Shown: positions 30,080 to 53,800, counted from the first letter of the stretch. The stretch is 64,000 nt of DNA from an uncultured Nitrososphaeraceae archaeon (GCA_963825865.1 CAWGVG010000008.1:1-64000); one strand, 5' to 3'. Notes: generated by a model not told the origin, from the letters alone. Program-made: numbers and translations.

Positions 30080-30230
30080 TAAGTAAGTATGACTACGTTG
30101 TGCCCCTAGAGTATACTGAGAATAATCTGTAACAAACGGAACAGGGAATTAATATTATCCTTGAAATCTTCAAACACCCAGATTGGTCTTCCCGCTCCCG
30201 CAGCAACCCCTGCTTCAAAAACGTTATGAG
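30080..30230 (-). pseudogene. C-terminal half of TIR-domain gene (N-half at 52422)
   Basis: Hand translation from the IS end: THNVFEAGVAAGAGRPIWVFEDFKDNIN/FPVPFVTDYSQYTL, including the TIR catalytic Glu region. Confidence 0.7.
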
Positions 30231-30232
30231 TA

Positions 30233-31276
30233 GATCTCTTGCGTAATTAGCAGCTATAGTCTAACACCCTACTTGTTTTAGCCGTCTTCTTAGATTGAAA
30301 TGCTGTCAGACTGTATAACTCTGAAGTTCAGGAGACCGGATATTATATCAGATACGTTATTGTACTTCCTTAATCTGTTTCTAAATTTAGTACCCATTAT
30401 TCCAAACTTTTTGATCTTACATATGGTATGTTCTACTATGATCCTTAGCCTAGAATGATTCTTGTTGTAAGTTCTTTCATCACATGAAAGCAATGTACCC
30501 TTTTTCTTTTTGATACGAAGTACAGACTTTACAGTGGGAAAGTCCTTTTCAATGCCAAGATAACCAAGATCAACTATGTTTTCAACTTGTGATGGAGTTA
30601 TAGAATGATTGTGTTTGTAAATGTCATAATCATGTTTTCTTCCACTTCTGTGACCTGTCTTATGCAGTATCAATCCTTCACTGTTTACCATCAATTGTGT
30701 CTTGACAGTATGTTTCTTCTTTCTACCTGAATAGTAACTCTTCCTTCTTCTTTTGTTCTTAGGTCTTGGAATTTCTTGTTCTGTAGAGTCTATGAAAGCC
30801 TTGAATCCAGGAAAGTACTCTTCTACTTCATCTATAGTTCTTAATCTCCTAGTACGTTTGTATATCTTCTTTGGCAATGGAATACACTCCTTGATAAGTG
30901 GTTCCATCATTGATATATCTCTACAAACATTGCTTTGATCAAGGTCAAACAGAAATCCTGATAATGTATATGTAATGTATAATCTGTAGTATACTAGAAG
31001 CATAACGAATCTTTCTTTAACTTTAAGCTTAAATGGTCTACCAGCACCTATATCCCGTATTCTCGTCCTTGATAGAAGACGTCTTCTTTCGTGCTCTTCG
31101 TAGTTATGTTCAATTTCGTTACAAATGGATTCAAATTCAGATACAGTTACTCCGGTAAATGACCTGAATATCAAAGGTTTCTTACATAATTTGCTATAGG
31201 ACATCAAAGAGCTTGTCAGATAGATATCCTATGTGAAGAGGAATATAGCTCTAAGCTTCTAATTACACAAGAGATC
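30233..31276 (-). mobile_element. IS5-family (ISL2/IS112-like) insertion sequence, copy 1, 1044 bp
   Basis: 18-bp terminal IR GATCTCTTG(C/T)GTAATTAG, TA on both flanks, intact transposase. Confidence 0.95.
30290..31207 (-). CDS. DDE transposase (HTH_Tnp_4 + DDE_Tnp_4 type)
   Basis: FIDSTEQ, YYSGRKKKHTVK, HD, VDLGYLG, RIIVEHTI. Confidence 0.95.
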   Translation of the reverse strand: MMSYSKLCKKPLIFRSFTGVTVSEFESICNEIEHNYEEHERRRLLSRTRIRDIGAGRPFKLKVKERFVMLLVYYRLYITYTLSGFLFDLDQSNVCRDISMMEPLIKECIPLPKKIYKRTRRLRTIDEVEEYFPGFKAFIDSTEQEIPRPKNKRRRKSYYSGRKKKHTVKTQLMVNSEGLILHKTGHRSGRKHDYDIYKHNHSITPSQVENIVDLGYLGIEKDFPTVKSVLRIKKKKGTLLSCDERTYNKNHSRLRIIVEHTICKIKKFGIMGTKFRNRLRKYNNVSDIISGLLNFRVIQSDSISI

Positions 31277-31278
31277 TA

Positions 31279-31475
31279 ATATACTCAGTTGGTGATACTT
31301 GTATCTGTAATTGTGTACAGAATTGCTCCAAAGTAGGTATACCCTGTAATAGTTGTCTTATTTGTTCAGCGTTAAGGAACTTAGTGTAACATTGTTCGCA
31401 AGTTAGTTTTACTGGGTGTGCTTGTGCTGCCGCTGCTCCTTCCTGTGTACAAGTTGCATTTTCACCTGGATGAGC
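31279..31475 (-). pseudogene. Middle part of modular secreted protein (C-terminus at 53701)
   Basis: HPGENATCTQEG identical to the motif in the 54122 gene, then TCEQCYTKFL...LEQFC...PTEYI cut by the IS. Confidence 0.75.
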
Positions 31476-31832
31476 TTCCACAACTTCATTTTTTACCACT
31501 CTTTCTTAACATAGTCTTTTAGTCCTGTAAAGTCAATCATGACACAAAGCTCATCTACAACAACTCATGCATTATGTCCTGGATGAATACAGCGATATCT
31601 ACAGGTCAGTCTTCATCTTCTCTTTTATCATCCACTACAACTTTAATTCTCCTGAGATTATTACTCTGATGTATGAGGAGCCTTACAGTCATACGTTAAA
31701 TCATGACGCTATCTTCGACATATTCCAGATACCTGATAAGATAAACCAGATCTATAGACTTTTTTTATAAGTACTCATATGTTGTAGATTTCTCTTGCTC
31801 CACTATTACGTAATAGTGCTGATTGTCAATCT

Positions 31833-33050
31833 TTAATTATCCTGCTCCTCGTTATCAATTTCTGGTTGAATAAATGTATTTTCTTTTCTACATGTGCGAG
31901 TCTGATTAACGGCTGCTGCTCCTGCTATTGGACGTGATCCCATATGACTTTGTTGTTGTTCATTAGATGGTGGCAGCATTGGGAATGATGATGGTAATGG
32001 TGATTTGCTAAAAGTGCAATCAGTGATAACTTTGTTTATGCTATCTTTTACTAATTTATTGAAAAGTTTTTGAGCTTCGTCTACTATCAGAGCCATATTA
32101 GCTTCCGTATTATAGTCTGGTGATGAGTCTGTTGTGATTGTTGTTGTATTCGTCCTCCATACATATAGGAGGCAGTGTAATCCTGGCCATCACTGTTGTA
32201 ACAATCTATTATTGAAGGAAGCATATTGTAAAAAAGTGACGTAAATCTTTCTGGGTTATTTGTTATGGACTCAGTTATTGACAAAAGCGCATATCTTAGC
32301 AACACTTTTACGTTTGAAATAACACCAAGTACTTCTTCTCCAACAGATTTTATGACTTTGAAATATTCTTCGTTATTGTCCTGAAAGTCATTTACAAGTG
32401 CTTCTAGATTCATCTTTTTTTGGTGTAGCTCAGCCATGTGTCTCTTTTCTTGTTCACAGGATAAACTACAAGAGTCCAATGTATTCTGTAAATCTGATAT
32501 ATGGTCGCTCAACTCCTGAAGAGTTCTGGCTGAATTCTGATTACCTGGCTTGTAAGGATGCTTCTTCTCTTTTGAGCTTTTCACACCTATATTCCACTGA
32601 TGATAGATCATCATTAGCAATTGTAAGAAGTCTGACCACCTGTTGTGCATCCATACGTGCCACCTTAGACAAAATGTACAAATTTACAAAAGGGTCAATG
32701 TCATCTTTAATTTTATCATAAATCCGACAAAGACTGTCAAGCTGAGTTAAGCTTGCAGTACTCCATATAGTATTTGTTTACTTCAGGCTCTCTTAGGTTC
32801 AATGCAATAGCTACTTGTGCCAGAGATTCTACGTTCAGAAAATAGCTTGTAAGCTTGAGAGGATATAGACATCTTTTCTGTATTGCTCTCCCTGGGCTTT
32901 ATTCTCTTTCTCTGCTTTTTTCAGAATGGCTCCTATCGCGCTAAATGACATCCTGGCTTCTTCAGCTATCTCACGTGTGTTTTTACCTTGATTGTATAAT
33001 CTAGAACAAGTCTTTCCCTTTGCTGTCTTGTTAATACCATCTAACTTGTT
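31833..33050 (-). pseudogene. HTH plus coiled-coil protein, multiple frameshifts
   Basis: LYNQGKNTREIAEEARMSFSAIGAILKK (HTH), second HTH-like segment and coiled coil across ORFs 32835, 32087, 31833. Confidence 0.6.
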
Positions 33051-33374
33051 TAATATATACACAATAAAAATAAAACAAAGAGCTGCTACCACCTGCTACC
33101 AATGTTGTTTCTCCTGCTCCCTCCTTATTACTGCCTGTTTTCATCTGTTTCCACCTGCTACCAGTTATTTCTAGTTTGAACTTAATATGCTAGCGATGTG
33201 TGTTGATCAGATAGACTAATCTTCATTATGACATACTCACAGAAAACACTAACTCCATTTGTGTCACTTATTTTTCACAATAAGAATCTTGTCAGTCCTG
33301 ATGATTTATGCAAGCAAATCAAATGTGAAAAATGTATATACACATGATCTGTATTGACTAACTTAAGATAGAAA

Positions 33375-34230
33375 TCCTCGGAGATTCTCCACAAACAAGA
33401 GGAAAAACCTTTGAAAGACTGATGGTAATAATACTTGATAAATTAGGTTACATTGACTTTATGCCTAATGTACGAACTACTGGCATGGAGCTTGATATAC
33501 TTGCAAAACACAAGGTTACTAAAGAGCAAATTTTATGTGAATGCAAGGCGCATGATCATGAAATAGGGCCACAAGATCTCAACGACTTCTTTGGAAAACT
33601 TAATCATCAGCGTTCTAATAATCCATCTCTTAATGGTCTATTCTTCTCAGTTTCGGGCTTCTCAGGCAGTGCTATAAAATATCACAGAGAACTAAGTGAT
33701 ACTGACAAAGAGAATTTTAGAATATATGGAAATAGTGAAATAATAGATATTCTGAGAAACGCCAACCTATTTGCTTCGGATGAAAAACTCGACAACAAAA
33801 TCAAAGATAATGCAGCAGATTATTCCATCGGGGAAAGATATATTGTGTACTCTTGAATCAGGAATTTATGTAATTCAGTTATTACTAATTGGTGGAAAGC
33901 CCCATAGTTACATTATTCTTACAAGAGAAGGAGATCTGGTCGATAAAACTATACAAGATGAAATTGCAAGACTAGACAGTACTATAAACTCTCTAACTAT
34001 AATTGACTTACCAATTTTGGAAAAGATAATACTCAACCTACTTGATTTCAACAAAAAGACATCAAGCCAAGTTTCACAGGAAATTGTACAAACAAGGCAA
34101 GATGTTGAAGTTGCTCTGCAAGAACTAATACATCAGAAAATAGTTTGTGAAGAATCACTATCTAACTCAGAGAGACTAATTGGTATTAATAGAGATCTAG
34201 AGACGCTTACAAAACTAGTGAAAAAATTCT
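33375..34230 (+). pseudogene. Mrr-like PD-(D/E)xK restriction endonuclease fusion, frameshifted and 3'-truncated
   Basis: RGKTFE, GMELDILA, LCECKAH, SVSGFS; second ORF with wHTH-like segment ends at the junction with a kinase. Confidence 0.75.
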
Positions 34231-34996
34231 AATAGCAAAGCAGGAGTTTCATCTTATGTAGCCATATTTGAGAATCTTTGGGTACAATCTGATTTGTATG
34301 AGCAGCTAAAAATCAATGATAAGATGCAAAAGGAGTTTATCAATATAGCAGCCCATGAATTACGAACTCCCATTCAACCAATACTTGGCTTAACACAAGT
34401 TCTTTAATAAAATAAAAGATAGTGAACATCTTGAATTACTAGAAGTCGTCATTAAGAATGCAAGAAGGTTGCAGAGACTTACTGAAGATATTTTAGATGT
34501 TACAAAAATAGAAAGCCAATCACTAAATCTTAGGAAAGAAAAACTAAACCTAAATGATATGGTGGCAGTGGCTCTAGATGACTATAAGGATGAAATTGGA
34601 AAAACTAATGGTAAGTTGAAATTAGTGTACGAAGATAAAGAAAATGATAATACTCTTATTGTGGAAGCAGACAAAAATAGACTTTTCCAGGTTTTGGGTA
34701 ATCTGTTAGCTAATGCAGTTAAATTCACCAAAGAAGGAGATATATCTGTGTCGATAGAAAAAAAAGACACTCAGGCTATAGTTAGTATAAAGGATACAGG
34801 TACAGGAATAGATCCTGAAATATATTCGAGGTTATTTACAAAGTTTACATCAAAATCCGTTACAGGTACCGGCTTAGGGTTGTATGTATCAAAGGGTATT
34901 GTAGAAGCTCATGGTGGTAGAATATGGGCTGAGAACAATGCTGATGGCAGAAAAGGTGCTACATTTTACTTTAGCCTACCGTTAAGGAAACAGTAG
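34228..34996 (+). pseudogene. Histidine kinase HisKA + HATPase_c, 5'-truncated
   Basis: AAHELRTPIQPI, NLLANAVKFT, DTGTGI, GTGLGL; frameshift near 34405; no start or sensor region. Confidence 0.9.
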
Positions 34997-35867
34997 ATAT
35001 GATTTATTAATTTTAATAACATAGTGATTAATACTATAGTGATAAGGAAGCCTTTTTACAACTCTTCTGCCAGATATCCTAGACTACGATTACTCCATTT
35101 CCGAAGGTATCGTAATGGTCGGAAGCTTAACTGACGATATTATCGATATCCAACTGGCCGTCTTAACGAATGGACGAGTGACTACGGACAAAGTAGGCCC
35201 CCATCAAGACCTGCTTGCAACGTCCCCTTATTTAGGCTCTCCACATCCAAATGCCAGCTAACTGCACTCCACTTCCTTCCAGAGAGGATATTGCAATGCT
35301 GAAGTTTTTTTTGCCAATGCAAAATACCAAATGAAGTTTCAACGTTACTTACCCAGGGAAAATCAGGACTATCAAATTTTTTACAACTATATTCTAGATT
35401 TCTGATAACATTCAACGTATGAGGCAAAGCATGATACTTTAATCCAAGCGCCATACTTGATAGATTGAGCTTGGAAATGTGACCAGATCTAGAAAGAATA
35501 TATAGTTTGTTGACCGGGAGGCCAACAATACTTTCATCCTTAAGAGCCTCTACAATCCTATTTTGCTTGTCTATTATCTTATCAATTTCTTGTGAATAAT
35601 AGGAGAACTTTTGATTAAGCATTTTCATATACATATACTCGGTGCTAAATAACACAAATATTGCTACTTAGATTTTCTATTGCTTTAATTTTGTATCCTG
35701 ATACTGCGTTAGTGAAAGGTTTTTTTACATTACTGTAGCTATTCTTATTATTGGTAATAGTATAGAACTTTTATTATATCAAAATGATCCTTTTTTACAA
35801 CCAAATCAAATAGTCGATTGCTGCGACGATGGTTATACCCAAATGGATAAAGAACTCAATATTACCA

Positions 35868-36025
35868 ACATTGCATAACATTCTTTTGCTAAGGCTAAAG
35901 CTTTGATCTTGTCACTCATTATACTGTTGTCTGTCTGGGACAAAGTCCACGCTTCTTTTAGAATACTGTTTAACCTACCAAGACATCTCATACTCTTCTG
36001 GCAGCCTTTCATCAATGTATCTCTT
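35868..36025 (-). pseudogene. Internal fragment of HTH/small-terminase-like protein
   Basis: YIDERLPEEYE/..LNSILKEAW...KIKALALAKECYAM. Confidence 0.55.
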
Positions 36026-36336
36026 CTCTTCTCATCCTTTTCTTTGATTATTTAAGAGCGTGGCACTTAATCTCTAGCGTTATGCCAGAGGTTGTACTAT
36101 AGGGGATTAAAATCAGACATCATCTAAAAGAGAACTTCTACTATTAGATTTGTATATCATATATCAAGAAGTTACTTACAGTGGCTGTAACTAGTCAGTG
36201 ATAATTTACAATACTAGTAGTACTATCATCTAAATCTAAGTATATCTGTCTACAAGTTCTACACTTCAGCTAGCTACTTTACCGGCTCTATTTAGGTAGT
36301 TTTTGCAACAATCATCTGAGCAGAAGAATAGAACTC

Positions 36337-36381
36337 CCTTACTGGAGCTTGAGTACCTTACTGGAGCTTGAGGACCTTACT
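36337..36381. repeat. Direct repeat, period 19
   Basis: CCTTACTGGAGCTTGAG at 36337 and 36356, partial CCTTACT at 36375. Confidence 0.8.
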
Positions 36382-36501
36382 CCTTCAACTAGATCATTAA
36401 ACTCTTTTCCGCATGAATTACAAAGTATGTACATATTTTATCTTGTGTATACTCTAAGAGTATCTATAAAGCCACCTATATACAGTTGTATCACCATTTA
36501 A

Positions 36502-36759
<258 letters not shown>

Positions 36760-36883
36760 GTGATTCTTTTGAGCTAGTTCGTGTATTCCATACAGTGCGT
36801 AGTTAATAGTAACATTACCTTCCCCCAGCATGGGAAATACATACGCCACTGAGTTAATATATTTTAGATTGGTTCACACTTAC

Positions 36884-37250
36884 ATGAAGTTTGGCTTACA
36901 ACACCCAATTTTTAGTTTCGATTATAGTAACCATAATAATACTTCTCAGATTGTTGATTCCTTAAAGAATCTTGTTACAAGAGCAGAAAATATAGGTTTT
37001 GATTCGTTTTGGGTAATGGATCATTTCCATCAGATTCCGTTTATAGGAAAACCAGAAGAACCTATGCTTGAAGGTTGGACAACTCTATCTGTACTTGCAG
37101 GCATAACCTCAAAAATAAAGCTGGGAACGCTTGTTACAGGTGTAATATACAGATATCCATCAGTTTTAGCAAAAATTGCTGCCACACTAGACGTGCTAAG
37201 TAAAGGAAGACTGTTTATGGGAATAGGTGCTTCTTATTTTGAAGGGGAGA
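36884..37250 (+). pseudogene. LLM-class (probably F420-dependent) oxidoreductase, N-terminal fragment
   Basis: MKFGLQHP, GFDSFWVMDHFHQI, YRYPSVLAKIAATLDVLSKGRLFMGIGA; stops abruptly. Confidence 0.9.
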
Positions 37251-38018
37251 TCAGCTAAAGAAAATGTGGAGATAATATTTTCTGCAGCCAATGCATTCCA
37301 TATTCTATTCATATTTGAAAATGCTAGATCAATGGCTTGATACATACAAGAAATTCCGTAAGAGGTAATTAGGGTCTTTGTAAACGAGGAGTTGTTTCTT
37401 ACTAAATAATCAGAACGTTATTCATCATTATATGTTTTCTAATTTATGCAATTTACTGTAAATGCTTTGGGAACAACAATCGAAAAGCATATAGCTAAAA
37501 ATATAAAATAAATATGGTATTACTAATGAATAACGTTAAGAAAACATTGTCTTCCAAATCAGAATCAGAAATCTCATACCTGTAGCAATAAAAAAGATGA
37601 TTTTGTTACAATAACAGAAAAAATAAAACTAAAAAAGGATCAATACGAAATCCTAAAAATTATTTGTAATACATATCAGACTTCCCTTTCAGAATACATG
37701 CAAGAAGCATTAATTGAAGCAATGAAATTTGATATAGAAGAAGGTAACTTTTGCGATATTCTACTAGAGAAGATAGACGACGGTGACAAAAGTAAGAATA
37801 ATTCTGTTCCTTCTTCCCCTGTTCCCGGGGTTAGGTCCCTGCATATAGAGGGGTTCAATAGTCTAACGTATTAAGATTATTTTTCTTTTTCTGGAATAGA
37901 TCAAATCATTTGATCCTGTTGAATCTTTAGGTGTTATTTCAGTTGATTAAAAACAGTTGGTAAATCTAGTTCTGTCAAAAACTAAACTAAAAACTACTGA
38001 GCTAAAAAAACAAACATG

Positions 38019-38026
38019 TTTAAATA
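38019..38026 (+). promoter_or_regulatory. Archaeal TATA box
   Basis: TTTAAATA with A-rich upstream sequence, ~23 nt before the ATG at 38049 (leaderless spacing). Confidence 0.45.
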
Positions 38027-38048
38027 ATAATCTCAGGATGTTAAGGCT

Positions 38049-38285
38049 ATGCCAAAGTTCCTTGATGCTCATCCTCTGAAAGGTGTTGATGAAGAAACTT
38101 TAAGAAAAGCACAAAACTCTCCTAAAGATGAATTTGGAATCACACACGAGAACATGCTTTATAACAAAGAAGAAGACAAATGGTTTTGTCTCCTAGATGC
38201 TCCAAGTAAAGAAGCAGTTGAAAAGCATCACCAGAAAGCTGGTATCACCCCCGAATGGATTACAGAGGTAAAAACAACGACTTAA
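38049..38285 (+). CDS. DUF4242/SCO4226-like metal-binding protein
   Basis: MPKFLDAH...FCLLDAPSKEAVEKHH..AG..PEWITEV. Confidence 0.8.
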   Translation: MPKFLDAHPLKGVDEETLRKAQNSPKDEFGITHENMLYNKEEDKWFCLLDAPSKEAVEKHHQKAGITPEWITEVKTTT

Positions 38286-38558
38286 AGAAAGATACTATAA
38301 GCATATATCAGAAAAATAACAAAAGCTATTGCTGGATATAACATGTGATATATTTTTTAGTTTTCAGCATCCTTTATTTTAGCCAATGACAAGGCTTGTA
38401 TTCTTTCTCTGGCATCTTACTGCGTATTAGATTTATCATAGTGCATCAATCAATAACTTCTGTGTGTAATGTTACTTCATAAAAGTTACTTTATGCATTT
38501 CAGGATTATATTAAAAAAGAGTTAACTGTTAAAGTAAAGGCAGAAGCTGTTTAACAGT

Positions 38559-38871
38559 ATGAACAAATCGACAATTATAGAAGAAATGCAGCAAATCAGA
38601 CGGTTAAGAATAATGGGTACACCACATGATCAAATCAAAAAGAGATTAAAGCTATCTAATCCTCAATATGCAAAACGAGTTGCAAACATAAACAAAATAG
38701 ACAAAGAGTATATAGAAAACGAATTCCATGAAGAACTAGGCTCTGAAATACTAAACACGAAAGGCAGAATAGAATCTGTAATCCGAATGTGTGACCGTAT
38801 GATGTCAGATGACAATAGCGATCCCTTTGCAAGACTAGACGCAGGTAGATTAACTATACATTGTTCAATTG
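38559..38871 (+). pseudogene. HTH/small-terminase-like protein truncated by an IS6 end
   Basis: HTH (GTPHDQIKKRLKLS) plus helical region, same layout as the 40330 gene. Confidence 0.5.
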
Positions 38872-38985
38872 AGCTCTGTTCAATTGACCATACTTTCAAC
38901 AATCATTTTGTTATGCATATAGACACAAACAAATTCAGCCAATTCATTACATGCTCTAATTTGCAGTTATATTTTCTTCTTTCAT
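38872..38985 (-). mobile_element. IS6 right-end remnant
   Basis: rc encodes NCKLEHVMNWLNLFV (cf. CNLIHVYQWLILFI at 41213) and ends in TGAACAGAGCT. Confidence 0.65.
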
Positions 38986-39046
38986 TATTAATCATACTTA
39001 CTGCTATCTTCAAAACGATAAAACTTCAAACCATAAGTGTTAAAAA

Positions 39047-39595
39047 TTAAGAGCACTTGTAATCAGACAATATCATGCCAAAAGTGCATTTTATTTCCAC
39101 ATGTTTTTCAGTATGACTAGTAAAAGATGCAGCTGCTGCTGTAATAGCGTCTTGGATTTCATTTGTAATCTTTTGATTTATTAAATCCTTGCTCACAAAG
39201 GGATTGGGAAGGCTTGGTTGAGCAGCAGAAGGAGAAGTTGTACTGAGTGTTTGGCTGCTACTGCTGTTTACTATGTATCCTATGTTAGGATTCTTGTTAA
39301 AATCATCTACTATTGTTGAAGTTATCAAGTTCTTCGAATCACTCAAAGAAGAGATTTTACCAGCTATACTATAGTTAGCACTGAATCTGTCAAGTTGAAC
39401 AGATGTTGAGGGGATTGAATATACACTGCTTAAATTAGTTGTTATTGTTATATTGGGTAGTTTGTTTGGAGATTGTATAGACTGAGGTGCAGGCTTTGTA
39501 TTATTATTCAAAGCGTAGACGTTATCTACCCAAAGTAACCCTAAAAATAGAGCCGACATTGTCAAGGCTATAATCGCCGGGTGCCTCAATATCAT
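39047..39595 (-). CDS. Secreted hypothetical protein
   Basis: Signal peptide (VYA), Ser/Pro-rich, C-terminal IKCTFG...YKCS. Confidence 0.7.
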   Translation of the reverse strand: MILRHPAIIALTMSALFLGLLWVDNVYALNNNTKPAPQSIQSPNKLPNITITTNLSSVYSIPSTSVQLDRFSANYSIAGKISSLSDSKNLITSTIVDDFNKNPNIGYIVNSSSSQTLSTTSPSAAQPSLPNPFVSKDLINQKITNEIQDAITAAAASFTSHTEKHVEIKCTFGMILSDYKCS

Positions 39596-39797
39596 ATATC
39601 ATGTTACCTATAAGTCTTATACTTAAGTTATCAGTAAGTTGGTTCTGAATATTGTTATAAGTGCATTTTATTTTGTTTACCAATTGCTGTGTGGCCTATC
39701 ATATCGAAATAATTTGAGGAGTACTCTGTATTCAGTACTGGACTGGCTAGTGTATTAGCTGCACTGGTGTAATTTGGTACTCGCCTTTCAACAGTGT

Positions 39798-40204: not shown

Positions 40205-40329
40205 CGCTTGAACATTATTACTAGGTCAGAGTTAGCTTTAGATTTTACTAAGAATTTTAAAAAATACGTACTCAAACCACAGTGGTATTGAAATACACCA
40301 TAAGATGGTCGTAGTGGTATTAAAGTTCC

Positions 40330-40743: not shown

Positions 40744-40879
40744 ATCCTTCTCTATATCTAACTATATACCTCTCTAATAAGTGCAAATAAAGTGCAAATA
40801 AAAAATATATGGATATTCTTGTCTGTAGCCATATACATTTTTGCTCTAATACCGATATGTTATCGACAATCCTATAAAT

Positions 40880-42445
40880 ATGAACTCACATAATTTTATT
40901 ATGTTGGTATTCTTTAGGAAAGGTGCATTGATCTTTTCTAGACTAATGCTTGCTGTCGTTATGGTATCGTTCCTAATGTTTTTCTTATCATCTACTATAG
41001 TGTTAGCCCAGCAACAGCAGCAAATACAACAACAGGAGCAGAGACCTTGGATTGGAATAGCAGGGATTGATATGACACCTAAAATTGCCGTTGCCATGGG
41101 AACAAACCAAACAAAAGGCTCTCTTGTAGCGCAGGTGACATATGGAAGTCCAGCTCAGGGTGCAGGAATAAGAGGTGGATATATCAATGCTATCGTTGAC
41201 GGAGCGGTGCTGTTAAGGCTCCTTTCCACCTTTTATCAAGAACTTAATAATGTTTATTTTAGATTGTGATTTTGATAAATTATATAAGAATATGAACAAT
41301 ATCAGCCATTGGTAAACATGAATTAGATTACAATCGACTACTTTCTTCCTACACGGGTAATAATCATCAAAACCTTCGGTTCTATCCTTGACATATTCCA
41401 TAGCTCTCTAAATTATGCTTTTTTCAAATGGTGAATGGAGTATGTGTTTTAGTCCTAAAGAATTGCAAGATTCAGGATACCATGATCCGCCATCAGAATA
41501 GATAGACAACATGTTTTCCATAAAGCTTAATCAATGATTTCAGAAATGATTCAGCTACTAGCATATTCCTGTGTCTTGAAATATAAACTCAAGGATTCTA
41601 TGTCGAATTGGTTCTATTATTGCAACCCAAAGCCATGCGCCAGTATAGCCGATCTGAACCATTGTTTCGTCTATGATATATGCAGTTATCCTACTCTTCT
41701 TTTTATTTGGAAAAACATCCTTTGGATTGAATTCCTGTATCCAATACCATATTGCAACATAACTTCTATCTACAAATGGTTCTAATGCCTTTGAGGTATT
41801 TCTTGGACTTAATCCAAGAAAGTACAGGTACAAGGCATATCGGATAAGAAATGGTCTAGTTCTATTACGTTCAAACATTACCACATTATTCTTAATCTGA
41901 TTAAGCTTTAGCAGTTACCTTTGCTTAACTTAACAGCACCGACGGAGCACAAATACCGGTAGGCGGGGATATAATATTAAGAATAGATAACACAACAATT
42001 AACACAATAAATGACGTCAATTCGTATTTGAATACCAAAAAGGTCGGAGATACGGTGCAAGTAACTGTAGCCAGAGATAATGTCATCAAAAATATTGCTT
42101 TGACTCTTGCTGCCAATGCCTGGCCTTATCTCTCAGCCCCCTAAACCGCAACTACAACTACTTGGAATGAGTACATTTTATGATAATAACCAGTTCAGTC
42201 CTGGACTTCATATAGTCGGTGAAGTTCTGAATAATGGCACACAAACGGCTACATATGTTCAGGTATCAGCAACATTATATGACATTAACAGTCAGGTCGT
42301 TGGAATCGGTTCTGGCTCTACTATGCCATCAAGTATAGAACCAGGCAAGAAGGTACCGTTTGAAATAGTGGTATCTCGGGACAATGTCAAAGGAGGAGAT
42401 TTTAACAATGTTTATCATGTCAGTGTCCGAGTGCAACATAGCTAA
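40880..42445 (+). pseudogene. Secreted PDZ + FxLYD-domain protein interrupted by IS6
   Basis: RPWIGIAG...GSPAQGAGIRGG | VGGDIILRID...KVGDTVQVTV (PDZ), then GEVLNNG...ATLYD...IEPGKKVPF; halves rejoin in frame after removing the IS and one TSD. Confidence 0.85.
41206..41940 (-). mobile_element. IS6-family insertion sequence, 735 bp, frameshifted transposase
   Basis: IRs GGTGCTGTTAAG / CTTAACAGCACC; 8-bp TSD GACGGAGC at 41198-41205 and 41941-41948; IIDET, WLWVA, SDGG.WY, KDRTEGFDDYYPC. Confidence 0.95.
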
Positions 42446-42449
42446 CTAA

Positions 42450-44435: not shown

Positions 44436-45095
44436 TAATAATAAATGTAATAGAATAAATCCAATTAAGTCACAAAAAGCTTGAAGATAAAGCAAAAGTT
44501 CATTTATGATTATAAAGTCTGCTATAGTGAATAATACATACCACATAAATTCAAATTATTAACGTGGGTAACTTACCTAACTTTAATGGTTCGATATTAT
44601 GCTAACTAAAATCACTTAATTGAATATTGCTTTTTTATATCAATAGAACCAAGAATTAAAATAAAAAGATCTTCTTTGAAAGTATGTAGCGGAGAACCAT
44701 AGCAGAGCTCGATGGCTTTTAATATCTTTAAAGTATTTTAACAAGTATGTGAAATTCTTCTGTGCAAAATACTAGATTTTAGTTCTATATAATATAATAA
44801 ATTGATTCTATTAGCATTTTATAAACACTACTAATTGTAATGGACAAAATTGTTTATAATTATAAGAAACAGAATTTATAGTATATTGGTTTGCCATCAT
44901 CAACTGAAGAGAATCTAAATGTCCTCTGCAAAGAAATACAACAATTAGATATTCTATTAGATTTGTAGGCATGCAAAAATTAGTCCATTTCAAGCATCGA
45001 TATCACTTCAAATCCTCTTGGCTTGACAAGAGAAGATCCTGTTGATCGCTAATCATAAATTACTAATAACTATCAAAGTAAAGGATGAAAAATAA

Positions 45096-45626
45096 GTGTA
45101 TAAAATTCTCGACAATCTTGCCACTCATGGCATAGCATACAATCATGATAACAACTACTATCTTATCTCCAAAGATTCGGTTTCAGAGGAAGAGATTCTT
45201 ACCTTCTCTGAAGCAACTGATGAGGACGGAAGCAAGTGGTTGATTATAGATGCGAGGATTCTAAGTGATTATAAAGTAAATGATATACAAGATTATTTAG
45301 CTTTGATAGATACTTGTTCGCTTGCCTTAAATCAAAATCATCGTATACTGAGGATTCTAAGTGATTATAAAGTAAATGATATACAAGATTATTTAGCTTT
45401 GATAGATACTTGTTCGCTTGCCTTAAATCAAAATCATCGTATACTTGTTTGTTGTGGCGCGGGCATATCAAGAAGTAATGCTGTAGCATTAGGAGTACGA
45501 GTAAAACATTTTAAAATGGATTTTTATGACGCATGGGAATTAATAAAAGAAAAAGTTCCTATAAGCAATATTGACCCATTACATATTGTAGCATTAAAGA
45601 AGATATTTAATGTAACCTTGCCTTAA
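45096..45626 (+). CDS. Dual-specificity protein phosphatase-like protein
   Basis: CX5R loop VCCGAGISRS; carries an in-frame 32-aa duplication. Confidence 0.8.
   Translation: MYKILDNLATHGIAYNHDNNYYLISKDSVSEEEILTFSEATDEDGSKWLIIDARILSDYKVNDIQDYLALIDTCSLALNQNHRILRILSDYKVNDIQDYLALIDTCSLALNQNHRILVCCGAGISRSNAVALGVRVKHFKMDFYDAWELIKEKVPISNIDPLHIVALKKIFNVTLP
45254..45445. repeat. Perfect 96-bp tandem duplication
   Basis: 45254-45349 equals 45350-45445 (RILSDYKVNDIQDYLALIDTCSLALNQNHRIL x2). Confidence 0.95.
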
Positions 45627-46634
45627 TGTTTCCATATAATACACGGCCCCATCATCAACTAAGTTTTTAAATTCAGACATTGGAAAACTTGGATTGCAAA
45701 AAAAGGTTAAAGGTAGTCTGCTCAATATCTAATACAATAATTTAGACCTATTTTTTCGTTTTTTTATAAATTCAAATTCTAACATGGATGACAAAAACGA
45801 GTCAAATTTGTTCTGAATCCCCCTAAATACACCTGATATAGATGTGTTTAATTAGCTATACTGGTTCAATATAAAACGAACAGGTCATATCCGCTTTGAC
45901 TCTTCATGTAGGAATCCTCTTGGTTTCAAAGTAGGCAGCATCATTCTTATTTTGTATTAAATAAATCAATCCATTAAATGATCATTCCTTTTCATCAAAC
46001 TTGAAATCCTCAAGATGTTCATAGATATTCAATAAATTGAATAAGCTTTGTCCCATAAGTAGAATCACCTTCCGTTAAGTATAATGTTATTATTAGAAAT
46101 CTAGTAATTGATTGACTTATTTTCTGTGTAGGCTTTGGCAGTTTGATTTCCGCATTATAGATGAAGGTAAAGGTCAAGAATTCAATGAAAGGCGCTCTGA
46201 ATCTACAATGTTTGACCTTGATTTTCAGGTACTGACCTCTCAAATGCTAAACTATATTCTTAGAAGTTTAGAGTTTAGATGTAGAATTATTATCCCAAGA
46301 TCTCAGTCACAAAATGGAAGAAGTGGACTGTAGCATTGTTACTATGTATTATTATTTGATGTAGTCAATATATTTAGTGATGAGTCTATTACTGATAGAA
46401 AATGAAGAAGAGTTACAGACAGAAGGAGGAATACCAGTATGTGGCGCAAACCTAACATCTCCTGTGGTGGATACAGCATGCTATATCGAAGAAATCCATT
46501 ACAAAATAGGAAATAGGCTTTATATTGAAAATGCGGACTAGCAAACAACAATAGCAGACCCAAGAAACACAGCAAAAAGAGAAATCAAAGAATAGATGCA
46601 CAACCTGAAAGGCTTCTAGTTAGCCTCAGTTAAA

Positions 46635-47078
46635 TTGATGACTTCTTTGAATCTAAAACCAATTATCCTCCAGAAAGAAAATGATCCAAGTCTGATTGCA
46701 TATAGTCTGGCAGTTACAATGGGTGGACACATGTGGTTAGGAGGTGATCTAGACTTTGCAGGCCTGAAGTTCATCCAGACATACAAAAGAAAGCAATTTG
46801 CATCCTTCTTTGAACACACATTAGATCCAATAGAAATTTTGAAATTAGTGAAATCTAAAGGTCAATTTAATCCTTCAGAAATAGATGCGGATAATGTATC
46901 GCTATACGGCTGCATATTCAACGTAAAATCGACAATATCTTCAGAGGCTGTCACAAGAGAAGTTATTACTGGATGGGATCTAATTAGCAAGAACTTGTCT
47001 GTAAACGGAATTGAAATTGAAAAACTATTTAGGCCAACTTTCTTCTATATGATCTTTGGATTACAATACATTATTTAG
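46635..47078 (+). CDS. Hypothetical protein (possibly truncated)
   Basis: 147 aa ORF, no motif. Confidence 0.4.
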   Translation: MMTSLNLKPIILQKENDPSLIAYSLAVTMGGHMWLGGDLDFAGLKFIQTYKRKQFASFFEHTLDPIEILKLVKSKGQFNPSEIDADNVSLYGCIFNVKSTISSEAVTREVITGWDLISKNLSVNGIEIEKLFRPTFFYMIFGLQYII

Positions 47079-47236
47079 AGGCTCTACTATTTCTATTGAT
47101 CTAGATATACAGATATTACTAAGGCTATGTTATTGGTATTACAAAAGCTCACAAATTCAAACATTCACTATTAAATAAAATGAAGTAGGGCAAAAATTAC
47201 AGGGTTTGGTTGAAATGATTCAAAAAGTTACCATAC

Positions 47237-47698
47237 ATGCACAGATACTTACTTAAATCAAAGCATCAACATATAATGATAGTAGATAGTTTTATGAATT
47301 CCAATTCGCTAGCTTCTTCTTCCTCATCGTCATATCCTTCAATGGATCTAAAAGGTTTGTGCAACACAATAATGAATACGGATGCACGAGTTCGATTTGT
47401 AGGTATACTTGATAATAAGAATGCAAAGCTTGTTGAAGGAGGTATGAGGAAAAATGTACCTTCTTTATTAGATTCAGGCAAAGACGAATTATTTTTCTTG
47501 AGAATAGTTTCTCAATTAAATCAGTTAAATAAGTTTAGACAAACTTTGGGAGATATAAATTATGTATTTGTCAAAATGAATAGGTTATCTTTTGTGATTA
47601 TGAGTTTAAAGAAGAATATGACTTTGCTAGTAAGTCTGGAACCAGATACAGATCCATCGTTTATTATTCCAACAATAAGGAATTCATTAATAGAATGA
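47237..47698 (+). CDS. Roadblock/DUF6659-like thaumarchaeal protein
   Basis: LCNTIMNTDARVRFVGILD...GGMRKNVPSLL...LLVSLEPD. Confidence 0.65.
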   Translation: MHRYLLKSKHQHIMIVDSFMNSNSLASSSSSSYPSMDLKGLCNTIMNTDARVRFVGILDNKNAKLVEGGMRKNVPSLLDSGKDELFFLRIVSQLNQLNKFRQTLGDINYVFVKMNRLSFVIMSLKKNMTLLVSLEPDTDPSFIIPTIRNSLIE

Positions 47699-47782
47699 GC
47701 TTCTACTATAGTTGGTACAACCTAACTACTGCAATTTCTAATCCACATGTGTGCCTTCCAATGATCTTTTGCCAATAAATTC

Positions 47783-48277
47783 TGTATACTGGGTGCATGC
47801 ATGGGACCAAATGACACCAGTTGAAGAGATGATGCGTGCTTTAGATGATATGGTAAGGTCAGGGAAAATTCTCTACGCTGGTATCTCTGATGCTCCAGCT
47901 TGATTAGTTTCACAAGCTAATACTCTTGCAAATCTTAGAGGATGGACAGAATTTACTGGTTTACAGATTGAATATAGCCTAATTGAAAGAACTCCAGAAC
48001 GAGAATTGCTGCCTATGGCTAGTGCATTGGATATTGGAGTGACAGCGTGGTCACCATTAGGCGGCGGTGTACTCACAGGTAAATATAACAAAAACAATAA
48101 AGATCAACTGCAACAAGGACAACAAAGACAGCAACAAAATAGATCATTATGAACTATGATTCTAACAGAAGGGAATAGTAGACTAAATGTTCAAAATGAT
48201 TTAGCAAACAGGTTCCTAAATGATAGAAATATCTTAATTGCTCAAGAAGTTAGCAAGATGGCTAAAGAGATAGGAAG
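47783..48277 (+). pseudogene. Aldo/keto reductase, internal fragment
   Basis: WVHAWDQMTPVEEMMRALDDMVRSGKILYAGISD...LQIEYSLIERTPERELLP...WSPLGGGVLTGKY with stops. Confidence 0.85.
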
Positions 48278-48739
48278 CTTGAATCTTCACATGGTACTAC
48301 TTATGGCTTATCTATTAAAATAAAGATGCAATAGATGTTACCTTCATTCACACGTTTGGCAACGATCGATTTGAGATCTCTATTGTGTGACTGTCTATAT
48401 GAATCAACAACAAGCTAGGAGCGCATAACACTGATCGAACTGGATTGAATTACAAGACATAATACGAATTAGTCACATCTGTTGTACTGCAAATGCGCAT
48501 TAGGAAGGGGTAATAATGACAGCAAGGTTAGTAGTAATAATAGATCCTCCTGTTCAGGATTATCTCCCCTAAAATACAATACATTTAGAGGAAGAGACAG
48601 CGCATCGACCTAGATAAGAAACCCTATGAAAGAAATACCTCGAATAGTTATACATATACAGACTAATTGATAAAAGCAGGGCTTAAGGCCGTATTACTAG
48701 ATGTTTGTAGAGTTCTTCTCAGATTACTGATGGTAAATG

Positions 48740-48958
48740 CTACTTTTTTTCTGCTGCTTCTTGGTCAATGTATTCTTTAAGACATGTATCACAAACCTTG
48801 AATTGTTCTTGGTCATTGGAAGTACTACTCACAATATGAAGGAGTGCTATTCTAACTCCACACAACTCGCAGTTGTAAATGTTGTCATCCATTAGAGGAA
48901 TGAAACGACGATGATGCTCTTCGATAGGTGGATTCTTTTGTTCTATTTCTGCTACCAT
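48740..48958 (-). CDS. Small Zn-finger protein
   Basis: CELC...VCDTC. Confidence 0.55.
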   Translation of the reverse strand: MVAEIEQKNPPIEEHHRRFIPLMDDNIYNCELCGVRIALLHIVSSTSNDQEQFKVCDTCLKEYIDQEAAEKK

Positions 48959-49755
48959 ATATCTCTCTATTCACCTCCCTTACCTATCCAAAGGATGGAT
49001 CGTTAGATTATTACGACCCAAAAGCATATTATTATTTACAGCCAATGCATACTTTTCTCTATCTGAAACAATACTGTATCAATATAATCATCAGTAATTA
49101 ATGAGGGTATATTAATACGACACGTTTTAGGAACTAATGAATTTATTTTGAATAGAATCTGAACCTTATTATCTATATCGGATTCATTATAACAGTCTTG
49201 TACTAATTTTGTGATTATACTGCTCGCTGTGATGTATTGTTCTAGTAGTAGTCAATTTATTCATGTGCCGGTTCCCTTCCTTTGCTTTTCTATTTTAATA
49301 TGCCAATTTGTTTGTACAAACAAGGCTTTATTGATTTGTCTTTAATTTTGTAGGCTGTAAAATGCCATGCTGCTTCAAGTGCTAGAAAGACAGTTGCAAA
49401 CCCAATACCCACATATGCTATATTTTCTAACATACCCTGTATACTTTATTGATAGATATAATGTTATCTACAATTTGGGTAAATATTTGACATAGTATTT
49501 TGATTTGATCTTTACATATGATAATAAATTGTTCTAGATAGTGTATGTGTTATTACAGATGTAAACGCATAACAACAGATACAAGTTCATAGAAAAAGAG
49601 AACTAGGCAATAAACTTGACAAGCTTCTTACTAGTTAGATGGCATGTTTCTATATGGAAGTGGGTTCAAAAGAATGTAAATGTTGCTGATAACTTTAGTA
49701 TATACAAACAACTGGTTAAGCAAATATTTGTAGATGAAACGCATTTTCATTAAGC

Positions 49756-50958
49756 TCAAGAAATCTTGTTCCATGAACTATACTCTATATCGGATTCAAA
49801 ATCAAATACTTTGTTTTCATATTCTTTAGGAGGATTATCTTTATCATTCTTCCTTTTGGTAATTGCTTCTCTTCTGTCATCTTCTGATTTTTCTGCATAT
49901 TTTTTAACTTGGTCTTTGAATTTTTCATCAGTACTCTTATGTATGAGCCATCTTATCTTCAGTGCTTGAACTAATAATAGCTCTTCTGCTTTTATTCCTT
50001 CGTTTCCCGAAAATATTTCACGAGCTATAATGAAATTATTGATAAATCGTTTGACTTCCCTTGGATTAAGTTCTACTGCTTTTGCTATTACCCCCTTATT
50101 TTCATCAACTAGCTTTGAATATATTTCATCTAATCGTTTTGATAAATTCTGAACCAACTTTTTTATGACGTCAGTATCATTCCATTCAGGAATTGTTATT
50201 GGAATCTGAATTATTTTGCGTATATAATGCTCTCCTTTTACTAGACTATCTTTATATGCTACATTGATAAGTTTGGAAATTGTATCTATGCTTAATCCTA
50301 CAATATAGATAAAGCCTTCCATTCCTAAAAATACCTTTATAGATTCGAATACTTCAAGTGCAGTTTTAGGCGAACATCTATCTAAATCATCAATAAAAAC
50401 TACTATTCTGTTCTTCCCATTTTCACTAGACATCTTTTTCATCTCTTCTTCAATTTTATACAAACCATCAAAGTAAATTGTATCTTTGTCTACCTGAGAT
50501 AATAGTTCCATCTTAGGAAAAAGATTTTTTTCTAATTCGTCAAAGCTTTCTTTAGGCACTAACGGTATCCATTTTTCAACTAGGCTTCTTAAAACACCTT
50601 TACCAACTATAACAGCTCCTCTAAGCAATATCTTTTTTATTTCTCTATACTGTGGCAGGTCGCCCATTGCATAAGCTATTGTCTTCATTAAAGCAATTAG
50701 CGCAAACTGTTCCTCTCTTTCATAACGCCACGCATTAAACCAAACAGTGAGAACATTTTCATCACTTTCAAGTTTATTATAAATCATTTTCATTAGTGTA
50801 GTCTTACCCGTTCCCCATTCACCATATATTCCGATAGAAAATTTTGGTTTAGATCCCCTTACCATTTTAACAATGGCATCACAATATTTATCAAATTCAA
50901 GAATAGGTTTATCTTCTTCTATGTCATCAGTCAGTATGCTAACATGATTTGCTGACAG
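49756..50958 (-). CDS. KAP-family P-loop NTPase (C-terminus probably truncated)
   Basis: GEWGTGKT, WFNAWRY, VFIDDLDRC, YIRKIIQIP, NPREVKRFIN; frame open upstream to ILTDDIEED. Confidence 0.9.
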   Translation of the reverse strand: MSANHVSILTDDIEEDKPILEFDKYCDAIVKMVRGSKPKFSIGIYGEWGTGKTTLMKMIYNKLESDENVLTVWFNAWRYEREEQFALIALMKTIAYAMGDLPQYREIKKILLRGAVIVGKGVLRSLVEKWIPLVPKESFDELEKNLFPKMELLSQVDKDTIYFDGLYKIEEEMKKMSSENGKNRIVVFIDDLDRCSPKTALEVFESIKVFLGMEGFIYIVGLSIDTISKLINVAYKDSLVKGEHYIRKIIQIPITIPEWNDTDVIKKLVQNLSKRLDEIYSKLVDENKGVIAKAVELNPREVKRFINNFIIAREIFSGNEGIKAEELLLVQALKIRWLIHKSTDEKFKDQVKKYAEKSEDDRREAITKRKNDKDNPPKEYENKVFDFESDIEYSSWNKIS

Positions 50959-51551
50959 GGGATCTGTAGTAATATGACATCACCAATGAAGGAAAGAATT
51001 TGACATAGTTAAGTTTTCTCTGAATATATGTCAAAATATTAAACTCAATTTAGTTAGATTATGGTGACAAGGTTAAGACCATAAACGGGGCGCAAGTAAT
51101 AACGAAAGTTACTGTTTATCCATCCATTCAATAAGCCAATTATATTTTGATAACTCATTACCCTCTTTACCAAATTTCTTCAATGTTGCAGCACATTCAG
51201 ATTTTATTTCTCGTCGTTCCACAGTTATTCCAATAGAAGAAAAACTTTTGTTGAAATTGTCGATATGGCAATTCAATACTCCTTCATCGTTAATTGAAAT
51301 TATTCCGGGGTTTATATTAGGCAGGGGACAGACAGATAGACTTAACGATACGGCATAAAAAAACAATTCCTAATTTCTTTTTTTGAATAACAATTTTGGA
51401 TTTGGTGTATTATTATTGTGTCAGAGAATTACCAATTTGTGAGGAATTGCGGTAAGAGAGTATCTATATGCTTATACAGGAATTCTAAAGATACCACCAG
51501 CGCAGTATAAATGATAATAATCAGTGTGGTCAAAATAGCATCTATCACCAT

Positions 51552-52010
51552 ATGCCATATACTCTCTTGTTCGGCAATAATTTTATCTATGAGAGTCCAC
51601 AATCAGTTAGAATTTACGACAAAATTCTCTTTTACCTGAGTGAAGATGATTATGGTCCATATTTGACTACAGAGATATTCGACTCGGGTGGTGAAAATGT
51701 AATAGTCAAAGTAGAAAAAAATACATGTACTTATCTGAATGGAAAAGGATTGATTCAAAAATACAATCAGAGGAATTATATTTTAATAAACAATAAGGAA
51801 GGCGAAAATATAATACAATCGAGAATTTTGGATAAAAAGACCATTCTAGTAAGCGGTATATTTCACTTCAAGGAATTTAAATTAATTGCAACTCAAAATT
51901 ATATCATTTTACCAGATGGAAAAAGAATGATGTACAACAAGGTCAACTCAAAAAATGGTCATGTGATGATAACGGCTGAAAGCATAAGAGCAGAGACAAA
52001 TAGTAGTTAA
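51552..52010 (+). CDS. Hypothetical beta-rich protein
   Basis: Intact-looking 152 aa ORF. Confidence 0.6.
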   Translation: MPYTLLFGNNFIYESPQSVRIYDKILFYLSEDDYGPYLTTEIFDSGGENVIVKVEKNTCTYLNGKGLIQKYNQRNYILINNKEGENIIQSRILDKKTILVSGIFHFKEFKLIATQNYIILPDGKRMMYNKVNSKNGHVMITAESIRAETNSS

Positions 52011-52421
52011 GTCACTGCCAAAGCTCGCCAATACAAACGGCATGTTTTGACGATTCGAAACCAAGACACCTTTCATTTCGTAATAATTATACTTGCCTCT
52101 GAGATTCTGTTGAGATTATGAAAATTTTTGCTCATTATGTAAAAATGGACTATTATCTGGCCTGTCATACTCACCATACCGCCAGAACAACTTCCCTATC
52201 GAAGCTCAGCATTAATCCCCGAGCAGCCTGCAGATGCCGTTGACAATTACAGTTCTTGGTTTGCGTTGAATTAGGATAACAACTCTATCTTTTTGTCCTT
52301 CAACTATACTTGGTAAAGGAAAGTTTTATTCATTTCGTGGCTGGTTTTTTAACCTACCTGTATAGAGTAGTGATCGATAGAATTAAAATCAGACTCACTT
52401 TCACAAGAACTAGGGAAATGC

Positions 52422-52654
52422 ATGGTTCGAGTATTTGTCTCCCATAGTCAGCACGACCACAACATAAAAAATTTCTTTTCCAATATCTTTACACACATTG
52501 GATTACAAGCAAAATACATGGGGTGGGAAGATTTAGACACAAACTACGCCGGAGTTGAGATAACGAGGTACATCCGTGATATAGAGACGGTTGCAGTTTT
52601 TCTATTGTTAGGGAGGAATTTACAATTTCCACCGCCATCGGCTCGTGTATATAC
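52422..52654 (+). pseudogene. TIR-domain gene, N-terminal half, cut by IS
   Basis: MVRVFVSHSQHD...AVFLLLG...VYT followed by the IS left end. Confidence 0.8.
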
Positions 52655-52656
52655 TA

Positions 52657-53699
52657 GATCTCTTGTGTAATTAGAAGCTTAGAGCTATATTCCTCTTCAC
52701 ATAGGATATCTATCTGACAAGCTCTTTGATGTCCTATAGCAAATTATGTAAGAAACCTTTGATATTCAGGTCATTTACCGGAGTAACTGTATCTGAATTT
52801 GAATCCATTTGTAACGAAATTGAACATAACTACGAAGAGCACGAAAGAAGACGTCTTCTATCAAGGACGAGAATACGGGATATAGGTGCTGGTAGACCAT
52901 TTAAGCTTAAAGTTAAAGAAAGATTCGTTATGCTTCTAGTATACTACAGATTATACATTACATATACATTATCAGGATTTCTGTTTGACCTTGATCAAAG
53001 CAATGTTTGTAGAGATATATCAATGATGGAACCACTTATCAAGGAGTGTATTCCATTGCCAAAGAAGATATACAAACGTACTAGGAGATTAAGAACTATA
53101 GATGAAGTAGAAGAGTACTTTCCTGGATTCAAGGCTTTCATAGACTCTACAGAACAAGAAATTCCAAGACCTAAGAACAAAAGAAGAAGGAAGAGTTACT
53201 ATTCAGGTAGAAAGAAGAAACATACTGTCAAGACACAATTGATGGTAAACATGAAGGATTGATACTGCATAAGACAGGTCACAGAAGTGGAAGAAAACAT
53301 GATTATGACATTTACAAACACAATCATTCTATAACTCCATCACAAGTTGAAAACATAGTTGATCTTGGTTATCTTGGCATTGAAAAGGACTTTCCCACTG
53401 TAAAGTCTGTACTTGGTATCAAAAAGAAAAAGGGTACATTGCTTTCATGTGATGAAAGAACTTACAACAAGAATCATTCTAGGCTAAGGATCATAGTAGA
53501 ACATACCATATGTAGGATCAAAAAGTTTGGAATAATGGGTACTAAATTTAGAAACAGATTAAGGAAGTACAATAACGTATCTGATATAATATCCGGTCTC
53601 CTGAACTTCAGAGTTATACAGTCTGACAGCATTTCAATCTAAGAAGACGGCTAAAACAAGTAGGGTGTTAGACTATAGCTCCTAATTACGCAAGAGATC
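52657..53699 (+). mobile_element. IS5-family insertion sequence, copy 2, 1043 bp, inverted relative to copy 1
   Basis: Near-identical to the reverse complement of 30233-31276; 1-nt deletion near 53251 splits the transposase; same IRs. Confidence 0.95.
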
Positions 53700-53700
53700 T

Positions 53701-53800
53701 ATACTAGAACTGCAGACAAGCAGGAGTTTCCGAATCGGCAGCAATTCAGCTAGTTCAATGTCTGCTAGACGCTGGAGTAGTGTTTGTAGATATTGTATAG
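53701..53800 (+). pseudogene. C-terminus of the secreted protein broken at 31279
   Basis: ILELQ/QAGVSESAAIQLVQCLLDAGVVFVDIV*. Confidence 0.7.

Follow-up and report, generated by a model that had tools for sequence, protein, structure and literature searches.

Two inverted insertion sequence copies with exchanged gene flanks point to a 21.4-kb inversion in a Nitrososphaeraceae genome

Two nearly identical copies of an insertion sequence (IS) lie in opposite orientation in a 64,000-nucleotide (nt) stretch of DNA from an uncultured Nitrososphaeraceae archaeon (GCA_963825865.1, CAWGVG010000008.1:1-64000; the whole stretch is called the window here), and each copy joins parts of two different genes. 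One of these, the TIR-like gene, belongs to a family of ~200 amino acids (aa) with a TIR-like and a zinc-ribbon part, and the other, gene B, belongs to a family of secreted proteins of ~190 aa. From left to right, the window carries the C-terminal piece of the TIR-like gene (minus strand), IS copy 1 (minus), a segment of 21,378 bp (31278-52655) that begins with the middle piece of gene B (minus) and ends with the N-terminal piece of the TIR-like gene (plus), IS copy 2 (plus), and the tail of gene B (plus). The orientation of this segment is opposite to that implied by the gene halves; turning 31278-52655 around places the TIR-like pieces on either side of one IS copy on the minus strand and the gene B pieces on either side of the other on the plus strand, the arrangement of two ordinary insertions. 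An earlier note on this DNA, made from the sequence alone, had proposed an inversion of 31277-52656, and the exchange of flanks is seen as it described, with the limits of the segment at 31278-52655. Judging from the sequence relationships described below, we consider it probable that the arrangement reflects a real inversion produced by recombination between the inverted IS copies.

Copy 1 occupies 30232-31277 on the minus strand (1,046 bp), with its 3' (right) end toward the left of the window, and copy 2 occupies 52656-53700 on the plus strand (1,045 bp). The termini (AGATCTC...GAGATCT) were placed by comparison with 69 related copies and lie one base further out on each side than previously given (30233-31276 and 52657-53699). 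The description of the copies as near-identical and inverted to each other is borne out: a repeat search of the window paired 30682-31283 with 52650-53251 (602 nt, 100% identity) and the adjoining 30231-30680 with 53252-53701 (450 nt, 99%), and pairwise alignment of the copies gave 4 differences in 1,046 bp, three of them substitutions and the fourth a 1-bp indel. Every one falls within the 450 nt nearest the 3' end of the transposase gene, and the remaining ~597 nt are identical. The indel is a G at 30681 that is missing after 53251; it lies outside any homopolymer, and the homopolymer context of the frameshifts is uninformative as to how the DNA was sequenced. The transposase open reading frame (ORF) of copy 1 is intact at 305 aa (30290-31207, minus strand; HTH_Tnp_4 plus DDE_Tnp_4), and relatives match it over residues 1-305, while the 1-bp deletion at 53251/53252 divides the transposase of copy 2 into 178 and 127 aa. 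The 19-nt terminal repeat AGATCTCTTGYGTAATTAG occurs four times in the window, once per end per copy, against an expected 0.06, and a count of 4 was reached in 0 of 100 shuffles. The transposase scored above the Pfam cut-offs for DDE_Tnp_4 (86.5 bits; cut-off 24.8) and HTH_Tnp_4 (39.9 bits; cut-off 27), and below the NCBIfam IS5 equivalog level (transpos_IS5_4, 59.6 bits; cut-off 140). These scores suggest that the IS is at best a distant member of the IS5 family; its closest plasmid-borne transposase relatives are only ~32% identical.

The two pieces of the TIR-like gene are at opposite ends of the inverted segment. The N-terminal piece (52422-52655, plus strand) corresponds to residues 1-78 of the family, and runs as ...PPPSARVYT up to the left end of copy 2, where its last codon is ACT (T78). 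The minus strand, followed downward from 30231, leaves the right end of copy 1 with the peptide THNVFEAGVAAGAGRPIWVFEDFKDNI...; this continuation (30151-30231) covers family residues 78-106, opens with a second ACT codon (T78), and is 2 residues short. Among the missing residues is W81, an invariant position across 36 aligned homologues; the window copy has lost this W but keeps the E of the same HNWxxxE motif. A further 14 residues (FPVPFVTDYSQYTL; 30107-30148, minus strand) can be read after a -1 frameshift at ~30149, beyond which homology stops, ~80 residues before the end of the family. The peptides that had been reported at these junctions, ...ARVYT entering copy 2 and THNVFEAGVAAG... leaving copy 1, are present. 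In the intact 200-aa homologue P0041, residues 1-78 correspond to the N-terminal piece (79% identity) and residues 78-106 to the C-terminal piece. P0003 aligns to the N-terminal piece over residues 9-44 and to the C-terminal piece over residues 44-73, and P0040 likewise spans the junction, both P0003 and P0040 doing so on their own contigs. Among the 36 aligned homologues, a single T precedes HNW in 33, TT in none, and the motif is missing in 3. Since the ACT codon of T78 is found in both pieces and the homologues have a single T, ACT is best read as the 3-bp target duplication of one insertion, the two copies of which would now lie at two different IS copies. The proposal that the frame is restored across this junction therefore holds in that the pieces are consecutive, but the original sequence would have been VYTHN and not the suggested VYTTHN.

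A corresponding relationship was found for gene B. Its middle piece (31278-31474, minus strand; HPGENATC...SPTEYI) abuts copy 1 and covers family residues ~88-157. The earlier note called the gene entering copy 1 a secreted one, but this piece begins at residue ~88 and has no N-terminal signal-peptide part upstream. The tail (53701-53800, plus strand) begins with ILELQ in frame with the middle piece and, after a frameshift, continues as QAGVSESAAIQLVQCLLDAGVVFVDIV to a stop codon, corresponding to residues ~165-186 (homologous part 53720-53785). The frameshift needed to read this conserved tail lies ~15 nt past the IS and its duplication. The junction peptides agree with those described earlier, with ...SPTEYI entering copy 1 and ILELQ followed by the +1-frame QAGVSE...CLLDAGVVF leaving copy 2. 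The minus-strand frame 31278-31499 (…HPGENATCTQEGA…CEQCYTKFL…SPTEYI), used as the gene B query against the representative library, matched 36 proteins, the window's own among them, at E <= 0.001. Full-length members of this family, ~185-192 aa long, start in the manner of a signal peptide (MNNTT…); they contain the HPGENATC block and share a C-terminal block of the form …VSE…QCL.DAG.VF. When the middle piece and the +1-frame tail (53708-53797) were compared separately with the 35 other proteins, both pieces were matched in 23 and the middle piece only in 12. The tail reached E <= 0.001 in 16 of the 35, following the middle piece in 16 of 16 and leaving a gap of 7-38 residues in the homologue, close to the 4-32 unaligned residues of the query. 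This collinearity with fitting gaps indicates that the two pieces are consecutive parts of one family member. Thus, when rejoined, the proteins align contiguously to single homologues for both genes (P0041, P0003 and P0040 for the TIR-like gene; 16 of 35 for gene B).

These alignments bear directly on the idea that unrelated fragments or paralogue remnants happen to fit together, or that a composite transposon was inserted whole, with no exchange of flanks in either case. A chance fit could be favoured by the abundance of gene fragments in the region and by the multi-copy nature of the gene B family, two further members of which lie in the window. However, TIR-like homologues span the junction, the T78 codon is common to both halves, and the pieces of gene B follow each other at the right distance; we therefore regard this explanation as highly improbable. 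A composite transposon was rejected because the outer 3-mers, AGT and ATA in window orientation, differ, and because gene halves lie both inside and outside the pair of IS copies.

The window carries two further members of the gene B family. Paralogue B2 (54122-54435, plus strand) covers family residues 1-103 with two frameshifts within ~300 nt and then continues into an unrelated Thr/Pro-rich C-terminal part (to 54667). A 42-nt inverted repeat (95% identity; 31433-31474 and 54389-54430) encodes HPGENATCTQEGA in both gene B and B2. The similarity of gene B to its family starts exactly at HPGENATC (31472), the start of this repeat, and that of B2 ends just past it; without the inversion, the 42-nt pair would be direct repeats ~2 kb apart. 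The repeat hints at an older rearrangement between tandem paralogues. Another family member at 63356-63583 (minus strand) matches family residues 1-80 only.

Relatives of the IS were collected by a scan of genome contigs with one genome per species, which gave 157 pattern matches, 117 of them encoding a relative; 79 loci were kept. Nearly all are from Nitrososphaeraceae or Nitrososphaerales metagenome-assembled genomes (MAGs), two of these MAGs bearing the name Candidatus Nitrosocosmicus; on this ground the host is taken to be a soil ammonia-oxidising member of the Nitrososphaeraceae. Approximately 50 of the 79 are on contigs of one MAG, which fits a multi-copy, mobile element. This MAG, with a largest contig of 2.2 Mb, holds ~50 copies of a related 1,042-bp IS (L006-L053, L059, L066, L067, L076, L078), two of which (L042 and L043) are inverted to each other at a distance of 9.5 kb and have the same 8 nt at the left flank. 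The same terminal ends were found in 77 of the 79 loci, and in 69 both ends could be placed 950-1250 bp apart; these 69 formed the sample for a flank test. The 3 bases immediately outside AGATCT...AGATCT were equal on both sides in 41 of the 69 copies, compared to 16.0 expected when partners were shuffled, while a register of 4 or 5 bp gave 0 matching copies. The duplication has the consensus A-N-T in AT-rich surroundings. These counts indicate a target duplication of 3 bp rather than the TA assumed previously, which must be rejected given the ANT duplications of the relatives together with the single T before HNW in the TIR-like homologues. Matching 3-mers are absent in 28 of the 69 related copies, across all genomes.

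With the register fixed at 3 bp, the flanks in the window can be compared directly. As found, and read in IS orientation, they are ATT…ACT at copy 1 and ACT…ATA at copy 2, so that neither copy has matching flanks (0/2). Re-pairing them according to the gene halves gives a perfect ACT/ACT pair, between 30229-30231 (right end of copy 1; minus strand, gene strand) and 52653-52655 (left end of copy 2; plus strand), and an ATT/ATA pair, between 31278-31280 (left end of copy 1; minus strand, IS orientation) and 53701-53703, with 2 of 3 bases equal. ATT/ATA pairs are present among the related copies as well (L006, L026, L042), and the mismatch in the window may be a later substitution.

The history that we favour would begin with the insertion of the IS5-family element into the ~200-aa TIR-like/zinc-ribbon gene and the ~190-aa secreted-family gene, in opposite orientations. 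The 21.4 kb between them would then have been inverted by homologous recombination inside the copies, with the ~600-nt identical tract as its most plausible site, after which each copy would join halves of different genes. The two copies, their orientation, the exchanged flanks and the contiguity of the gene halves in homologues are shown; recombination inside the cell as the cause, and the sequence of steps, we infer. Several points limit this history. One of the re-paired duplications is imperfect (ATT vs ATA). Matching 3-mers are also missing from 28 of the 69 related copies, so that mismatched flanks by themselves are weak evidence. The source genome is absent among the 79 kept loci, where the best nucleotide identity to the window IS is 83%; orthologous flanks were likewise found at none of these loci, and outside the IS the only matches to them are other repeats at ~34.2-35.0, 38.1 and 41.3-41.8 kb. 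Finally, the ~597-nt identical tract faces the inner segment on both sides, and the sequence itself fixes no orientation of the middle.

This last point is also what would be expected if the 21.4-kb middle of a genome with two simple insertions had been misplaced by the assembler, or if the population contained both orientations and the contig showed one. All 4 differences between the copies are in the 450 nt facing the outer flanks, and given ~597 identical nt toward the middle, reads or read pairs shorter than ~650 bp could not have fixed its orientation. An inverted repeat pair makes both orientations valid paths in an assembly graph, and the closest relatives are all MAGs. However, short-read metagenome assemblers usually break at such repeats, and related IS copies are on contigs of 1.4-5.9 kb in short-read MAGs (L001-L003) but within long contigs in MAGs with largest contigs of 0.3-2.2 Mb. 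The window runs through two internal IS copies, which suggests an assembly from long reads spanning the 1-kb element and its flanks, although this is a hint and not a test. We consider an orientation artefact or a mixed population unlikely on balance, while giving it appreciable weight beside a real inversion.

A different origin in a single step would start from one IS copy, whose replicative (copy-in) intramolecular transposition into the other gene would create the second, inverted copy and the inversion at once. Intramolecular replicative transposition of Tn3/IS26-type elements yields an inverted pair with an inverted segment, and the exact structure in the window would be expected from it: each copy would be flanked by half of the original site on one side and half of the newly targeted site on the other, both 3-bp duplications would be recoverable by re-pairing, and the copies would be as similar as they are (4 differences in 1,046 bp). 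The earlier proposal of two independent insertions followed by recombination would lead to the same structure as this process. However, DDE_Tnp_4/IS5/PIF-Harbinger transposases are mainly cut-and-paste, and 41 of the 69 related copies have ordinary matching duplications, as for simple insertions; for these two reasons we rank a one-step origin below recombination and regard it as improbable. A copy-in transposase, needed for an inversion of the Tn3/IS26 type, is not known for the IS5/DDE_Tnp_4 family.

With the lesions described above, both split genes are pseudogenes, whether they decayed before or since the event, and gene B was already truncated. The point that the inversion made both knock-outs irreversible by simple excision is formally right but moot: with further lesions in both genes, irreversibility is without consequence. 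The inversion is best seen as neutral genome scrambling and not as a switch. A programmed invertible switch was considered and rejected, as there is no separate recombinase, both genes remain interrupted by the IS whichever way the segment lies, and each has additional lesions.

The identity of the TIR-like family deserves separate comment. With the query P0040 included, the family has 60 database matches (proteins P0041-P0098), none with a Pfam domain; where the records carry names, these are 'hypothetical protein', with Nitrosotalea in two. Searched alone against Pfam and NCBIfam, the four gene pieces of the window gave nothing at E <= 0.01 and, in a relaxed search, only matches at E > 0.07, the TIR-like halves matching Pfam TIR-type models at E 0.18 and 0.12. 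P0041 stayed below the Pfam gathering score for the TIR-type model CAP12-PCTIR_TIR (20.1 bits vs 24.7), and at E <= 0.1 the 36 members matched CAP12-PCTIR_TIR (8/36), TIR_2 (5/36) and Nuc_deoxyrib_tr (10/36). A profile of the first six TIR-like sequences had 0 matches at E <= 10 among PDB sequences. In an AlphaFold (AF2) model of P0041 (pLDDT 88.1), the top PDB fold matches found with Foldseek are TIR domains (RPP1, SARM1, AbTir, SpbK and TIR-APAZ), with E values of 1.1e-3 or worse and target-normalised TM scores of 0.44-0.63. Among language-model neighbours, those that carry family names are archaeal TIR_2 clusters (0.84-0.87), and this serves as no more than a lead. The motif HNWxxxE is present in 33 of the 36 members and resembles the WxxxE stretch that surrounds the catalytic Glu in TIR NADases. 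Toward its C terminus the family has four conserved cysteines and weak zinc-ribbon/RING matches, and a PADLOC search with the intact homologue gave no match. Set beside TIR domain proteins such as SARM1, plant NLR TIRs, AbTir, SpbK and TIR-APAZ, the family resembles them in the best, though modest, fold matches of the P0041 model and in HNWxxxE, but differs in having no Pfam TIR match above gathering score and no PADLOC match, and in its C-terminal four-cysteine zinc-ribbon/RING-like part. On these sequence and model comparisons, 'TIR-like' appears a fair label for the split gene and TIR membership is not established; the earlier name, TIR gene, is only partly borne out.

The remainder of the window is rich in partial and disrupted genes. 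The inverted segment contains an Mrr_cat ORF, a HATPase_c fragment, a luciferase-like fragment, a dual-specificity-phosphatase (DSPc)-like ORF, and a KAP/QatA-like NTPase. The last of these, a KAP-family P-loop NTPase (49756-50865, minus strand), is 1.6 kb from the TIR-like N-terminal piece and matches the PADLOC models PDC-S20, QatA and PifA; it was the only one of five neighbouring proteins with a clear PADLOC match, the other four having weak matches or none. The Mrr_cat ORF (33422-33856) has weak PDC-S02 matches only (E 0.0025-0.0047). Together, the NTPase and the Mrr_cat ORF give the segment the appearance of a defence or mobile island in decay. The phosphatase-like ORF (45096-45626) includes an exact in-frame tandem duplication of 96 nt (32 codons) at 45254-45445. 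Two further stretches, 41295-41840 and 34226-34984, resemble, at 67-77% identity, sequences in the vicinity of IS copies at several other Nitrososphaeraceae MAG loci and are probably other dispersed repeats or gene families, 34226-34984 overlapping the HATPase_c fragment. Toward the left of the window, an aldehyde dehydrogenase gene (8262-9687, minus strand; apparent extra T in TATTAAT) and a PQQ beta-propeller dehydrogenase gene (5955-7779, minus strand) are each divided into two overlapping ORFs by a single frameshift. These may be real pseudogenes or consensus indel errors, which bears on the trust to be placed in the assembly. A tRNA scan of the window found none, and the composition and skew profile showed no informative change at the junctions.

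The window illustrates at junction level the way in which an expanding IS family can alter a Nitrososphaeraceae genome, and the IS is now defined as to where it ends, the 3-bp ANT sequence that it duplicates, and the AT-rich sites that it targets. The orientation of the assembly at this locus merits checking ahead of synteny or pangenome analysis. A small by-product is the ~200-aa TIR-like/zinc-ribbon family, which may interest researchers of archaeal defence. More broadly, because the IS reaches dozens of copies in related Nitrososphaeraceae MAGs and 28 of the 69 copies have no matching duplications, it is conceivable, as a tentative reading that we would not yet favour, that recombination between IS copies is a pervasive scrambler of soil ammonia-oxidising archaeal genomes, with the window as one clean reciprocal case that cost the genome one member of a TIR-like/zinc-ribbon family, undescribed so far and widely conserved in thaumarchaea, which may be a defence effector.

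Among known systems, the IS itself is closest to the IS5 and PIF-Harbinger-ISL2EU (PHIS) group. The duplication consensus of IS1031 and Harbinger is TNA/TWA. The window IS has in common with the group DDE_Tnp_4 plus HTH_Tnp_4, short terminal inverted repeats, and a 3-bp duplication, but it is far below the NCBIfam IS5 cut-offs and its duplication consensus is ANT. Canonical Harbinger elements are described as making 3-bp duplications and their relatives duplications of 0, 2 or 3 bp (PMC12730594). Inversions of the Tn3 and IS26 type end in the structure found in the window: the IS copies are inverted to each other, the DNA between them is turned around, and the target duplications are split. 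The mechanism proposed here is ordinary and well known, and no new one is revealed; the structure in the window is what homologous recombination between oppositely oriented IS copies is known to produce. IS-mediated rearrangement of the Bordetella pertussis genome through IS481, as described in PMC4888882 and PMC6161684, offers the nearest parallel. In both cases, an inverted segment is enclosed by oppositely oriented, near-identical IS copies with exchanged flanks and target duplications; in the window, however, the host is a Nitrososphaeraceae-type archaeon, the IS belongs to another family, and the inversion is deduced from split genes rather than from a comparison of strains.

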